Source of the DNA: a virus
Reading direction: 5' to 3' (one strand)
IMG/VR virus record: IMGVR_UViG_3300028833_002847
DNA: 29,340 nucleotides
Both the position numbers and the translations under genes were made by a program. Position 1 is the first letter of the stretch; every line of letters starts with the position of its first letter. This document shows, in pieces, positions 18,074-27,321 of this stretch. Under the pieces are notes generated by a model. The model had not been told where the DNA came from. It worked only from the letters and a program-made list of their open reading frames with translations, and searched no databases.

Positions 18074-18445
18074 ATGAATAGACGTCAACTGTTAGATAAA
18101 ATTAGAACTCATTATCTTAAAGATTATTATAATTATAATAAAGTAAGTTCTCAACTAAAAAGATATGAAGAACAAGGATTTAATTATGATACTATAAACG
18201 ATATCTTACATTATTGGTATGATATTAAAAAAGAAAAACCTGAAAAATCTAATGGTGGAATTGCTATTATTGAATATATTTTAGTAGAGTATAATAATTG
18301 GAAAAAAAGCCAAGAGGAACAAGAAGAAACAATAAAGTTAATTAAACAAAACATTAATAAGTTAAATTATAAAGAAAAAGAATACACCGTTAATCCAACT
18401 CCAATTAAAAGACCTCTGCATTTAAAATTATTTAATTTAGAATAA
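18074..18445 (+). CDS. Hypothetical protein (123 aa); by position, a possible helicase loader
   Basis: Immediately upstream of the DnaB-like helicase, as for the small SPP1 G39P-type loaders. Inferred from position only. Confidence 0.3.
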   Translation: MNRRQLLDKIRTHYLKDYYNYNKVSSQLKRYEEQGFNYDTINDILHYWYDIKKEKPEKSNGGIAIIEYILVEYNNWKKSQEEQEETIKLIKQNINKLNYKEKEYTVNPTPIKRPLHLKLFNLE

Positions 18446-18448
18446 GAG

Positions 18449-19888
18449 GTGTTTTTATTGAATAAGAATCAAATTAATAGTTTATATGATAGCGCTTCTG
18501 CGCTTCAAATTTTAGGATGTACAATGAAACATCCAAATTTAATTATTAATAGTGATGGTAAATATACTTTTACAGAAGATGATTTTGTTCCTGAAATTCA
18601 TAAAATTGCATTTGGAGCTTTATATAATTTAGCAATTATGGGAACAACAAATATTACAGTTCAAGTAGTTTATGATTATTTATCTGATAGACCTAAATCA
18701 TTAGGGGTCTTTCAAGCAAGTAATGGAGAAGAGCTTCTTACTAGAGCTAAAGAAGCAGCTGATTTTGCAGCTTTTGATTTTTATTATAATCGTTTAAAAA
18801 AATATTCACTTCTTAGAGGATATGCACGTGCGGGAGTTGACGTATCAGAATATTATAATTTTAACAATATTCTTAATATGAAAGAAAAGCAAGAAGAACA
18901 AGAAAGATTTGATTCTTTAACTTTAACTGAATTAGCTGATGAAATTGATAGTTCTATCATGCGAGTTAGAGACGTATATGTTGATAATAGTTTAGAAGAA
19001 TCTTATACAATTGGAGATAATCTTTTTGAACTTGTAGAATCTTTAAAAGAAACTCCTGAAATGGGACTTCCCTTATATGGTGACATTTGCAATACAATTA
19101 CTAGAGGAGCAAGACTTGGTTGTCTATATCTTCGTTCAGCAGCAACAGGAGTGGGTAAAAGTCGTAGTCTTTTAGCAGATTCTTGTTATATGGCTTGCTC
19201 AGAAATTTATAATAATTCGACGCAACAATGGGAAAATCACGGTAGCCCGCAACCTTCTTTATTTATTTCTACAGAATTAGAATTAAGAGAACTTCAAACT
19301 ATGGCTTTGGCATTTATATCTGGTATTCCTGAAAATAGAATTTTAGATGGAGAATTACATTTTGATGAAGAAGATAGATTGAAAAAAGCTATAGGATTAT
19401 TACAAAATGCTCCACTTTATATTGAATTATTACCTAATTTTTCTGTAAAAGATATTGAAAATTGTATTAAAAGAAATTTAAGAATAAACAGAGTGCAATA
19501 TATTTTCTTTGATTACTTATCTACTTCTCTTGGAATTCTTGAAGAAGTTGGACGTAGAACTCGCGGAGTTGCAATGCGAGAAGATAGTATTTTATTTTTA
19601 ATATCAACTAAACTTAAAGAAATAGCAGTTCAATTCAATGTTTTTATTATGACAGCGACTCAACTTAATATGGATTGGAAAACCGATCCGTTACCTGACC
19701 AAAATTTATTAAGAGGAGCAAAATCCATCGCAGATAAAACAGATTTTGGTAGTATTCTATTAAATTCAACAGAAAAAGATGAACAAATGTTAGCTCCTAT
19801 CATTCAAGAATTAGGATGTTCTATGCCTAATGTAAAATTAAGTGTATATAAAAATCGTAGAGGTTCAATTGTTCAATCTTATATTTGA
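18449..19888 (+). CDS. DnaB-family replicative DNA helicase
   Basis: RecA-like core with Walker A LRSAATGVGKS. The start is probably TTG 18458 after RBS aagaggtg. This is the only ORF in the window that nominally ends in TGA (19886-19888); see the next feature. Confidence 0.75.
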   Translation: MFLLNKNQINSLYDSASALQILGCTMKHPNLIINSDGKYTFTEDDFVPEIHKIAFGALYNLAIMGTTNITVQVVYDYLSDRPKSLGVFQASNGEELLTRAKEAADFAAFDFYYNRLKKYSLLRGYARAGVDVSEYYNFNNILNMKEKQEEQERFDSLTLTELADEIDSSIMRVRDVYVDNSLEESYTIGDNLFELVESLKETPEMGLPLYGDICNTITRGARLGCLYLRSAATGVGKSRSLLADSCYMACSEIYNNSTQQWENHGSPQPSLFISTELELRELQTMALAFISGIPENRILDGELHFDEEDRLKKAIGLLQNAPLYIELLPNFSVKDIENCIKRNLRINRVQYIFFDYLSTSLGILEEVGRRTRGVAMREDSILFLISTKLKEIAVQFNVFIMTATQLNMDWKTDPLPDQNLLRGAKSIADKTDFGSILLNSTEKDEQMLAPIIQELGCSMPNVKLSVYKNRRGSIVQSYI

Positions 19889-20005
19889 ATGGTAGCCGAT
19901 AAATCAACTTGTAGATTTAATCCAATTTTTGTAACTGATTGGTGGTATAAACCAATAGAAGTAGAAAAAACTAAAATTAAAGTAGTATTACCTTGGGAAG
20001 ATTAA
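19889..20005 (+). CDS. 38-codon ORF in frame with the helicase. Either a C-terminal read-through extension (if TGA = Trp) or a separate small peptide.
   Basis: ATG 19889 directly follows TGA 19886-19888 in the same frame; TAA 20003-20005 is followed by the primase ATG 20007. Confidence 0.4.
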   Translation: MVADKSTCRFNPIFVTDWWYKPIEVEKTKIKVVLPWED

Positions 20006-20006
20006 T

Positions 20007-21077
20007 ATGGCTTTTTATGATAAAGATGAAGTTAAAAATGCCTTAGATATAGAAGATGTATTTGATATTTTAGAATCATTAAATGCTGAGCCAGACTTGC
20101 GGGAAGATTATATTATAGCTATTACAGTTTGTCATGGTGGAGATAGTCATAAATTATATTATTATGATAATACTAAACTTTTTAAATGTTTTACTCATTG
20201 CGGAACAATGGATATCTTTGAATTATTAATGAAGATTAAACAAATAGATTTAAATACTGCTGTATCTTATGTTGTTAATTTCTTTAATTTGGGTTGGAAA
20301 ATTAAAAATAAAGATAATATTGATAATTTTTTAGACTGGAGAATATTAGATAAATATGAATATATAACTAATATTAAAATTAATAATCAAAAAGCAGTTT
20401 TTCCAGAAATTGATTCTAAAATTTTACAACATTTCCCGCAACCTAGAATATTAAATTGGGAACAAGAACATATACCAAAAGAAATAAGTGATTATATGGA
20501 CATTCATTATAATCCTTTAACCGGAGGTATCCTTATTCCGCATACGGATGAAAATAATAGATTAATTGGTATTAGAGAAAGAACTTTAGTTCAAGAAAAT
20601 GAGAAATATGGTAAATATCGTCCAGCAAGAATTAATGGCAATATGTATAACCATGCTCTTGGATTTAATTTATATGGTTTCTATCAAGCTAAGGAAAATA
20701 TTAAAAATACTCAAATTGCTTTAATTTTAGAAGCTGAAAAAAGTGTTCTTCAAGCAATTAATTATTTAGGAATAGCAAATAATATAGCTGTTGCAGTTTG
20801 CGGATCAACCTTATCTTCATATCAATTGCAAATGCTATTGGACATAGGAGTAAAAGAAATTGCAATAGGTTTTGATGCTGATTATCAAAAAATTGGAGAT
20901 AAAGAATATGAAGAAACTATAAAAAAATTTGAAAAAATATATAATAAATATTGTGGATATGTTAATATAAGTTTTTTATTTGATATAAATGGTGATTTAT
21001 TAGAATATAAAAATTCTCCAACAGACAAAGGAAAAGATGTATTTTTTCAATTATGGAGAAATAGAGTATTCTTATAA
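20007..21077 (+). CDS. DnaG-type DNA primase (zinc finger plus TOPRIM)
   Basis: CHC2 zinc finger CHGGDSHKLYYYDNTKLFKCFTHCG; TOPRIM glutamate in LILEAEKSV; DxD in GFDADYQ. Confidence 0.75.
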   Translation: MAFYDKDEVKNALDIEDVFDILESLNAEPDLREDYIIAITVCHGGDSHKLYYYDNTKLFKCFTHCGTMDIFELLMKIKQIDLNTAVSYVVNFFNLGWKIKNKDNIDNFLDWRILDKYEYITNIKINNQKAVFPEIDSKILQHFPQPRILNWEQEHIPKEISDYMDIHYNPLTGGILIPHTDENNRLIGIRERTLVQENEKYGKYRPARINGNMYNHALGFNLYGFYQAKENIKNTQIALILEAEKSVLQAINYLGIANNIAVAVCGSTLSSYQLQMLLDIGVKEIAIGFDADYQKIGDKEYEETIKKFEKIYNKYCGYVNISFLFDINGDLLEYKNSPTDKGKDVFFQLWRNRVFL

Positions 21078-21092: not shown

Positions 21093-22850
21093 ATAAATAT
21101 TAAAGAATATAATAGTCCAAATCCTTTATATACTCCAATTCAACAAGTTCTTTATAACAGAGGTATCCCAATAGAAGAACAAGAAAAATGGTTAAATGCT
21201 GATTGAAGATATATTAATGATTGAAGAGCTTTTGGAGAAGAAAGGGTGCGGGAAGCAGCGTCAATTATTTATAAAGCTCTTAAAAATAATGAACGTATTT
21301 CAACAGTAGTTGATCCAGACGTTGATGGATTTACATCGGCCGCAATTATGATTAATTTTATTAATAATTATTTTCCAAAATATGTTAATGAAAATTTTTA
21401 CTATGTGCTTCATTCTGGTAAACAACATGGTTTAGCTGATATTGATTTACAAGATATTGTTGATAGAGGTACTAGTATAATGTGGATTGGTGATGCTGCT
21501 AGTAATGATTATGAACAACATAAGTTTTTAGTAGATAACGGTATAGATGTAATTATTACAGACCATCACGAATGTGACGAATATAGTCCATATGCAATTA
21601 CTATTAATAATCAAATGTGTGATTATCCAAATAAAAGTTTAAGCGGTGTTGGTGTTACTTGGCAACTTTGTAGAGCAATTGAAGAGATTTATCAATTAGG
21701 TGATTATACTTCTAAAATGGTTGATTTAGTTGCTTTAGGTGTTTTATCAGATATGATGGATTATCGGCAGATAGAAGTTAGAGCTTTAGTAAATCTTGGT
21801 TTAAATGCAATTACCAATCCTTTTTTCCGTGGAATGACTATTAAGAATAAATACTCTATTGATAAAATGAATGGTATTAATTATTTTTCAACTGCTTTTT
21901 ATGTAACTCCTTATATTAATGCAATCTGTAGAAGTGGAACTCTAGCAGAAAAAGAAATTGTTTTTAAAGCTATGTGTATTCCATATGCTTTTCAAAAAAT
22001 ATTAACAACTAAAAGAGGTCATAAAGGTGAAACTGTTGCTTTATATGAAGAAGCTATTTTAATTGCAGATAGAGTAAAAAGACGTCAAACAAAATTACAA
22101 GATGCTTCAATGGCTTTGTTAAAAAATAAAATTGAAAAAGAGCAACTTCTTAATAATTCAGTAATAGTTCTTTTATGCAACCCTGGTGATGTAGAGCCAA
22201 ACATTGCTGGATTATGTGCAAATAAAATTCAAGCAGAATATCAACGTCCAACTCTTATCTTAATTAAAACACATCAGTTTAAAGATAAAGAAGATATTTA
22301 TAGAGGCTCTGCCCGCAATTATAGTCAATGTGAAATTGAAGATTTTCGTAAAGTATGCGAAGATACTGGTGAAACAAGTTTAGCACAAGGCCATCAAGGA
22401 GCTTTCGGTTGCTGGATTCCCGAATCTAATTTAGATAATTTTATTTCAAAAACAAATGAATATTATAAAAATCTAGATATGTCTCCTACCTATTGGGTTG
22501 ATTATAATTGGAATAGTAATCAAATTGATTCTAAAATACTTTTAGATTTAGCAGATTTAAATATTTTTGGTCAAGAAATACCAGAAGTATTTGTTGCAAT
22601 AAAAGATGTTTCTTTATCAGAATCTAATGTTACTTTAATGAGTCCTGATAAACATCCAACAATTAAGATACAAATAGGAGATGTTTCTATTATCAAATTT
22701 AAATCAAGTCAAGAAGAATATGAGAGTTTTATCCAACCAAATACTAAAATTACTTTAATAGGTAAGCCTGCTAAAAATGAATGGATGGGGAGCGTATCCG
22801 CTCAGATTTTAATTGATAATTATGAATTAAAAACAGAATGGGTATTTTAA
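21093..22850 (+). CDS. RecJ-like DHH-family ssDNA exonuclease. The N-terminus, with two TGA = Trp codons, lies upstream of the tracked ORF.
   Basis: DHH motifs VVDPDVDGFTS and ITDHHE; DHHA1 motif GHQGAFG. The frame is open from 21078 with RBS aaaggagg at 21077-21084 but no in-frame ATG. Either an ATA 21093 or ATT 21099 start is used, or GTG 21246. The upstream peptide YTPIQQVLYNRGIPIEEQEKWLNADWRYINDW resembles the RecJ N-terminus. Confidence 0.65.
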
Positions 22851-27006: not shown

Positions 27007-27321
27007 ATGAATGAATATTGATTTGTACATGAGCCTAAACCTGAATGGGTGCGGGAATTGCAAGAACAAGGAATTTTAACTGGCCCTGAATATGCTGCTG
27101 TAACTATAGTATATACTTTTTATACAGGAGAACATAAAGATTATCTTTATGATGGAGATGCTTTAATTAAAACTACAGAAGGTATTATTGCTCCAATTTC
27201 TTATCAGTGGATAGACAGAGCTAAAAGAAAAAATCCAGATATGAAATTATATTCACCAGTTGAAGGACAAATGGAAGAAATTCTTGCATCTATTTATTCC
27301 AATTTGGGCAAAAATAAATAA
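27007..27321 (+). CDS. Hypothetical protein (104 aa) using both TGA and TGG for Trp
   Basis: RBS ggaga, ATG 27007, in-frame TGA 27019-27021 and TGG 27046-27048. The tracked ORF 27049..27321 is the C-terminal part. Confidence 0.45.

Follow-up and report, generated by a model that had tools for sequence, protein, structure and literature searches.

Does the replicative helicase gene in a 29,340-nucleotide (nt) stretch of viral DNA (IMG/VR record IMGVR_UViG_3300028833_002847, referred to here in its full length as the window) end at a TGA codon with an optional extension beyond it, or is that TGA simply an amino acid codon? The frame of this DnaB-family helicase meets a TGA at 19886-19888, stays open for a further 38 codons to a TAA at 20003, and is followed by a primase ATG at 20007. 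An earlier reading, made from the letters of the sequence, had these coordinates right and proposed that inefficient or stage-dependent suppression of the TGA would yield two helicase isoforms. Our analysis indicates that the virus is very probably a phage in which TGA has been recoded to tryptophan (Trp; genetic code 4), so that TGA 19886 is a sense codon, Trp477, with a phage tRNA bearing the anticodon UCA as its likely decoder. The virus is a large tailed phage of low guanine-plus-cytosine (GC) content from rumen-type or gut-type metagenomes. The peculiarity of this locus was correctly observed, and it is an ordinary consequence of a known change of genetic code, not a conditional extension.

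The helicase TGA lies on an invariant tryptophan

Read through its single internal TGA, the helicase gene (18458..20005, + strand) encodes a full-length DnaB-family replicative helicase of 515 amino acids, in which the TGA is codon 477 and the true stop is the TAA at 20003-20005. The likely start is the TTG at 18458, located 8 nt past the Shine-Dalgarno (SD) sequence AAGAGGTG (18444-18451), which we prefer over the GTG at 18449. Pfam DnaB_C (PF03796) matches the protein with E=3e-17 over profile positions 11-242 of 255; the match ends three residues short of the TGA, and the remaining strands come from the tail. The N-terminal domain PF00772 is on record for many of the helicase homologues. 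Given that stop codons make up about 7.8% of the + strand trinucleotides, the chance of finding 38 open codons after a stop is P ~0.045. The length of the open reading frame (ORF) alone thus proves little, and it is homology that carries the case.

A homologue search using the read-through helicase protein returned thousands of relatives, of which the best 120 were aligned. These are mostly 505-515 amino acids in length and span 97-99% of the read-through protein. The tail aligns throughout, and the TGA column is Trp in every listed full-length homologue; in all, some 150 proteins and loci were examined and every one has Trp at this position. Within the motif Y(L/I)WMxADKxTCRF this residue is the invariant Trp; in a 32-sequence alignment (A2) W473, R482, F487 and T489, in the numbering of the homologue P0002, are invariant. 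At the DNA level, the codon is TGG in 28 of 28 distant loci (46-55% amino acid identity). Together with the invariant column, this bears out the suggestion in the sequence-only reading that TGA can be read here as Trp. P0001 (476 amino acids, 97% identical) is the only short relative; it stems from a gene call made with the standard code on a sister contig, where the TGA recurs together with the 38-codon 'orphan'. Apart from such calls within the same clade, we found no homologue that ends at the TGA.

The structural context of the tail is consistent with these alignments. The alignments from a PDB sequence search for DnaB stop ahead of the tail, and we used the AlphaFold model of P0002, a 56% identical homologue (mean predicted local distance difference test score, pLDDT, 87.8). 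In this model W473 (pLDDT ~95) lies within a strand formed by residues 470-477, which is followed by a strand at 482-490 (pLDDT ~91-95) and then by two short strands. A stop at the TGA would, according to the model, cut a β-hairpin of the ATPase domain in mid-strand. The last 38 codons (MVADK...LPWED; 19889-20002, + strand) correspondingly encode the native C-terminal β-strands. Judged by its conservation, the 38-residue tail is the native C-terminus of the helicase, not a separate ORF or an add-on. The sequence-only reading had called for an alignment with DnaB homologues, and in that alignment the 38 residues are indeed conserved as part of the helicase. Its assignment of them to the helicase stands, while the term extension does not, as they form the conserved C-terminus of every homologue.

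The TGA is also stable among close relatives. Five related genomes, with 83% to 99.98% nt identity to the window, have it at the helicase codon: L035 (99.98%), L002 (99%), L003 (on the same contig as L001; 94.5%), L020 (94.4%) and L004 (83%), and the same TGA was recovered in independent assemblies from several samples. In L004, conservation is higher in the tail than in the gene around it: of 117 nt, 9 are changed, five synonymously and four with a change of amino acid (S-to-A, T-to-A, K-to-E and D-to-E). A megablast search of the helicase region against GenBank phages gave zero matches. If the codon is read as Trp, the tryptic peptide spanning it is GSIVQSYIWMVADK. Separately, the dnaB gene of L020 carries a 351-bp insertion (L020:519-869, at about window position 19717) in which every frame is interrupted by stops; it resembles an intron, and no Rfam intron family matches it.

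The primase gene (CHC2 zinc finger; 20007..21077, + strand) begins directly behind the helicase. Its Pfam Zn_ribbon_DnaG match (E=9e-4, 19.5 bits) is below the curated cut-off of 24.9 bits. In an SD scan of the window, 20 of 25 gene starts were preceded by an SD sequence; the primase ATG (20007-20009), positioned 1 nt past the helicase TAA, was not. From this arrangement we infer that primase translation is probably coupled to that of the read-through helicase by termination-reinitiation. The ATG at 19889, directly after the TGA, likewise has no SD sequence and encodes the conserved Met of the WM.ADK motif, which together make separate translation of a 38-amino-acid peptide unlikely. The RNA following TGA 19886 folds no better than shuffled sequences (z=0.27) and forms no stable hairpin and none resembling a selenocysteine insertion sequence (SECIS).

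TGA is a sense codon throughout the phage

We evaluated codon usage beyond the window on the Joint Genome Institute contig Ga0247611_10000367 (IMGVR_UViG_3300028591_004246; 93,199 bp), which is 99% identical to the window. Positions 7825-93199 of this contig were pieced together from overlapping loci, and the genome-wide counts cover this ~85 kb. The contig contains 141 in-frame TGA codons and 203 TGG codons, with at least one TGA in 25 of its 69 genes (36%). TGA accounts for 74% of Trp codons in the structural and lysis blocks, compared with 13% in the replication/nucleotide block (Fisher p=1e-24). TGG is thus the majority Trp codon in replication genes, and for this reason the three TGG codons in the helicase tail, correctly pointed out earlier, are no argument against reading TGA as Trp.

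The most heavily recoded gene seen is an ORF of 3923 amino acids with 61 TGA and 12 TGG codons (81415-93186, minus strand; L123), which reaches the contig end and probably encodes a giant tail or fibre protein. An endolysin combining GH25, CHAP and peptidoglycan (PG)-binding domains has 17 TGA and 7 TGG codons, and an SPP1-type holin has two TGAs. Trp is the dominant residue at 16 of the 17 endolysin TGA sites in 119 homologues, with several sites reaching 116-119 of 119. To avoid circularity in these Trp assignments we checked the DNA of one homologue, L129, which has a GC content of 57%, uses TGA as a stop and contains 18 TGG codons and no internal TGA.

When genes were called with TGA as sense, and hence unavailable to the caller as a stop, 41 of the 51 ended in TAA and 10 in TAG. 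Every standard-code ORF that ends at a TGA continues with homology beyond it, and Pfam domains span in-frame TGAs in genes of both the window and the contig. Public gene calls already apply code 4 to some contigs, giving a DnaB of 515 amino acids in L035 and a flavin-dependent thymidylate synthase (ThyX) of 202 amino acids in L039. The standard code, which the sequence-only reading had taken as its reference, is the wrong reference for this locus: TGA is a sense codon across the whole phage, whose GC content is 29%. TGA as Gly (code 25) was considered and rejected, since Trp or aromatic residues, and no Gly, align with the TGA sites. We likewise discarded inefficient read-through by tRNA-Trp(CCA) alone, which is impossible for ORFs with 17-61 TGAs.

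Within the window, reading through gives 16 in-frame TGAs in eight genes including the helicase, at 529, 559, 1992, 2121, 3833, 4013, 4052, 4241, 4301, 7112, 7178, 7238, 19886, 21204, 21222 and 27019. The TGA at 19886 had been described as the only TGA stop in the window, which is mistaken, as the left-edge ORF also ends at a TGA (529-531) when the standard code is applied. All 16 are conserved in relatives, with one TGA/TGG swap, at 21204 in L004. At the 15 positions other than the helicase codon, relatives have mostly TGG or an aromatic residue, and of all residues aligned to TGA sites in the comparison of relatives' codons Ser occurs only once.

Two regions that appear gene-free by the standard code, at ~3.7-4.35 kb and ~6.97-7.34 kb, are genes broken by TGAs. 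The former is ThyX (3740..4348, + strand), with five TGAs (3833, 4013, 4052, 4241 and 4301) and one TGG. The Pfam Thy1 match (E=9e-51, residues 6-181) spans four of these TGAs, and the relatives' codons are TGG at amino acid 188 in 15 of 15 loci and at amino acid 168 in 10 of 17. PDB ThyX structures have no Trp at the 'AQWEIR' site, and the case for ThyX is built on these codons instead. The latter is a SLOG/DprA-like gene (6968..7336, + strand; Pfam DNA_processg_A and YAcAr) with three TGAs (7112, 7178 and 7238) and no TGG, and its TGAs are kept in four related contigs.

Downstream of the primase, a RecJ-like DHH exonuclease gene (21093..22850, + strand; Pfam DHH, RecJ_OB and DHHA1) contains TGAs at 21204 and 21222, where relatives have TGG in 13 and 21 loci, respectively; amino acid 49 is TGG in 21 loci, and at 21204 the codon of L004 is TGG in place of the window's TGA. 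The gene starts at an ATA (21093) 8 nt past a strong SD sequence, AAGGAGG; L003 has ATG at the corresponding codon and L004 has ATT. Owing to the ATA start, standard ORF lists miss the first 51 codons, including the two TGA Trp codons. At the left edge, the window begins within a gene for an LPXTG-anchored Gram-positive pilin, of which the C-terminal part is present (1..1698, + strand; TGAs 529 and 559; Pfam GramPos_pilinBB, SpaA and Gram_pos_anchor) and which appears in L039 and L041 as a single gene call of 602 amino acids. Two small genes (1824-2006 and 2022-2318, + strand) have one TGA each (1992 and 2121), the former being TGG in one relative. A further gene (27007..27321, + strand) with one TGA (27019) is called as 104 amino acids in L035 and L036.

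The helicase neighbourhood comprises genes for YorF-like and AAA_24 proteins, the primase and a PolC-type polymerase. L003 has two insertions here that are absent from the window: a LAGLIDADG-type ORF between the YorF-like and AAA_24 genes (L003:2058-3095, ~window 17088) and an additional Cys-rich ORF of 84 amino acids that separates the primase gene from RecJ (L003:7086-7348, ~window 21077). An Rfam scan of the window found nothing.

A candidate decoder and the alternative readings

Among the phage tRNAs, we found a 96-nt tRNA(UCA) on the 99%-identical contig (L039:1481-1576, equivalent to L125:10815-10910 and L131:20620-20715). It is one of 25 tRNAs in an array that lies some 6 kb upstream of the window and shares its strand with the replication genes. 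ARAGORN gives it the label 'SeC', and its Rfam score (56 bits) is that of a generic tRNA. The tRNA has an A1-U72 pair, G73, an encoded CCA and a normal 7/5 acceptor-T branch. The array also holds a tRNA-Trp(CCA), which is the only other member to combine A1-U72, G73 and an encoded CCA.

Several observations count against Trp reassignment by this tRNA. It was seen in the 99%-identical contig and not in the window, which contains no tRNA genes. Its long variable arm gives it a Ser- or Sec-type (selenocysteine) shape that is abnormal for Trp tRNAs, and in a 93%-related phage another UCA tRNA occupies the equivalent spot of the array (L130:20931-21026). Bacteria and phages are known to possess tRNA-Sec-like or long-arm opal tRNA scaffolds that can be charged by seryl-tRNA synthetase (SerRS) (PMC5389517). 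In addition, no gene for release factor 1 (RF1) or tryptophanyl-tRNA synthetase (TrpRS) was found in contig positions 7.8-93.2 kb. The tRNA at L126:12898-12994 is of the L130 type: both resemble tRNA-Sec, combining a long arm with an acceptor stem of 8 bp and a D stem of 6 bp. Related phages thus have two unrelated versions of the UCA tRNA, both class II-shaped. Despite this odd tRNA shape, the codon-level evidence points clearly to UGA being read as Trp.

Other features of these arrays and contigs were observed alongside. A related 132.7-kb phage contig has a tRNA with a CUA anticodon, an amber suppressor, in place of the UCA tRNA (L127:8424-8499), which suggests that relatives use a different recoded stop. 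The array on the 99%-identical contig contains a full-length ROOL RNA (L039:4894-5541, 298 bits) and a 91-nt tRNA-Ile(UAU) whose long variable arm is unusual for an Ile tRNA (L039:7234-7324). The same contig codes for a TROVE/Ro60-like protein and another protein that contains a major-vault-protein shoulder domain, as well as for a reverse transcriptase adjoining tail-fibre-like genes.

The phage also provides clues to its host. A sortase gene (contig Ga0247611_10000367, 18404-19207; L131:1157-1960; Pfam E=4e-25) lies 25 kb from the LPXTG pilin gene, and the combination of sortase, LPXTG pilin and PG-directed endolysin implies a cell-walled Gram-positive host. Related helicases occur in cultured phages of Bacillus, Enterococcus, Staphylococcus and Lactobacillus. 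Most of the metagenome-assembled genome (MAG) bins in which this helicase family occurs are Bacillota from the guts of ruminants and rabbits, and some are labelled Mollicutes, Anaeroplasmatales or Acholeplasmatales. A scan of GTDB genomes with the pilin found nothing. The phage genes and the related phages and bins point to a walled Bacillota bacterium with the standard code as the probable host.

If instead the host itself used code 4, as Mycoplasma-like bacteria do, the phage would simply follow it, with no code conflict or switching. TGA as Trp is the code of Mycoplasmatales and Entomoplasmatales, and the Mollicutes-type labels on some of the bins accord with this. We nonetheless consider it very unlikely, given that the sortase, the LPXTG pilin and an endolysin that degrades and binds PG all need a cell wall, and that the phage has its own UCA tRNA. 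Furthermore, TGA occurs in only 36% of genes and its use is strongly modular, as Borges et al. found for phages whose hosts keep the standard code (bioRxiv 10.1101/2021.08.26.457843). A long-standing code-4 genome at 29% GC should favour TGA everywhere. Decoding of UGA as selenocysteine or serine draws on the tRNA: the ARAGORN label, the long variable arm and G73, the 8-bp acceptor and 6-bp D stems of the L130 and L126 versions, and the ability of SerRS to charge such scaffolds (PMC5389517). The protein data speak otherwise, as the TGA sites align to Trp or aromatic residues rather than to Ser or Cys, including invariant Trp sites in DnaB and the endolysin. With no SECIS-like hairpin after the TGA, a generic Rfam score for the tRNA and 141 sites, far too many for SelB-dependent insertion, a selenocysteine or serine reading seems to us scarcely credible.

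The remaining alternatives concern the helicase codon alone. One is a true stop with regulated, site-specific read-through by a minority of ribosomes, which would generate functional isoforms of 476 and 515 amino acids; two isoforms were what the sequence-only reading had proposed. This would account for a codon that is the sole TGA of the helicase, in a replication block that otherwise uses TGG, and that stays TGA in five genomes; stage-dependent decoding is moreover permitted by the published model of recoded phages. We regard regulated read-through as highly improbable because the tail is universally conserved and part of the fold, no RNA structure that could promote read-through lies downstream (z=0.27), and only the same-clade standard-code calls (P0001) end here. 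The 140 other in-frame TGAs, up to 61 of which occur in one ORF, also mean that decoding must be efficient. That the gene is a pseudogene or split, through a nonsense mutation or sequencing error, or with the 38-amino-acid ORF as a separate product complementing in trans, is barely conceivable. An ATG does follow the TGA immediately, and standard-code callers list the short ORF, but this ATG is the conserved motif Met and has no SD sequence, and the break would fall in the middle of a β-strand. Nor would a disrupted gene be expected to show the same TGA in independent assemblies from several samples and down to 83% identity, or a tail that surpasses the surrounding gene in conservation with synonymous and conservative changes. 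Recoding of TGA to Trp is the reading that we retain.

Relation to known systems and consequences of recoding

Recoded phages provide the natural comparison for this virus, and the survey of them by Borges et al. is said to have been published later in Nat Microbiol (2022). Borges et al. describe TGA-recoded phages as low in GC, with TGA lost as a terminator and with suppressor tRNAs, recoding being favoured in lysis and structural genes and variable in replication genes (bioRxiv 10.1101/2021.08.26.457843). In standard-code hosts 26-71% of their genes are recoded, compared with ~90% in recoded hosts, and one group, the Agate clade (~127-154 kb, with cattle samples included), has TGA-recoded, TAG-recoded and standard-code members (bioRxiv 10.1101/2021.08.26.457843). 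The phage studied here resembles the Agate and Jade phages in several respects: it is low in GC, has TGA at Trp positions and encodes its own UGA suppressor tRNA; its lysis and structural genes are heavily recoded and its replication genes lightly or variably so; and the contigs, of ~90-150 kb, come from ruminant samples. Its 36% of recoded genes falls within the range of 26-71%, and the amber suppressor of its relative L127 echoes the mixed codes of the Agate clade. By analogy, it fits the Agate description, the resemblance being one of size, source and recoding pattern. There are differences: the replication machinery of the Agate examples is TGA-free, whereas here DnaB, RecJ and ThyX carry one, two and five TGAs; the 'code-change module' of RF1 and TrpRS described by Borges et al. 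has no counterpart in the 85 kb examined; and the long variable arm of the UCA tRNA departs from the account given for Agate and Jade.

The closest counterparts of the helicase itself are found in SPbeta-like and Herelle-type phages of Bacillota (Bacillus SPbeta/BUCT083 and Enterococcus VRE9/EF5), with 35-37% identity over residues 5-509, tail included. These phages also have the Pfam DnaB_C domain and YorF-like, AAA_24, primase and PolC-type polymerase neighbours. They use the standard code with TGG at the Trp position, in contrast to the TGA found here.

Programmed stop-codon read-through, of which the A1 coat extension of Qbeta is reportedly an example, has in common with this locus an in-frame UGA followed by an open frame, and two products would be conceivable if decoding were incomplete. 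Here, however, the downstream part is an ancestral conserved core, TGA is sense genome-wide and no local stimulatory signal was found. The UCA tRNAs have their likeness in the allo-tRNAs with opal anticodons (Mukai et al. 2017, PMC5389517), with which they share the long variable arm and G73; the L130 and L126 versions additionally share the 8-bp acceptor and 6-bp D stems of allo-tRNAs and Sec-like tRNAs (PMC5389517). In contrast to those tRNAs, which are specific for Ser, Cys and Sec (PMC5389517), the codon evidence here indicates Trp, and the tRNA of the 99%-identical contig has the normal 7/5 branch.

These data allow us to propose how the helicase is expressed. The phage tRNA(UCA), presumably charged with Trp, would decode TGA 19886 as Trp to give the 515-amino-acid helicase. 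Ribosomes would then terminate at TAA 20003 and re-initiate one base on, at the SD-less primase ATG. Before the tRNA accumulates, host translation would be expected to stop at codon 477, leaving a 476-amino-acid fragment that lacks the conserved strands and is probably non-functional, with the primase uncoupled. Such a step could serve as a timing device, close in idea to the stage-dependent suppression of the sequence-only reading and to the published model of recoded phages. A more speculative, and in our view rather unlikely, extension of this model is that the TGA at Trp477 acts as a translational checkpoint, whereby helicase and coupled primase are made only once tRNA(UCA) has accumulated, Trp is delivered by a class-II-shaped tRNA, and the code switch gates the onset of replication and not only lysis.

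For annotation, the consequence is that the helicase, ThyX, RecJ, the pilin, the endolysin and the giant tail protein are truncated or missed under the standard code, and the public gene call P0001 already lists this helicase as a 476-amino-acid protein with a 38-amino-acid orphan. For phage biology, the window and its relatives add a ruminant-associated case to the known TGA-recoded phages. The odd shape of their UCA tRNAs poses a puzzle as to how these scaffolds acquire Trp, and the recoded codon, found also in a few replication genes, is relevant to whether code switching sets the timing of lysis alone or of further functions.

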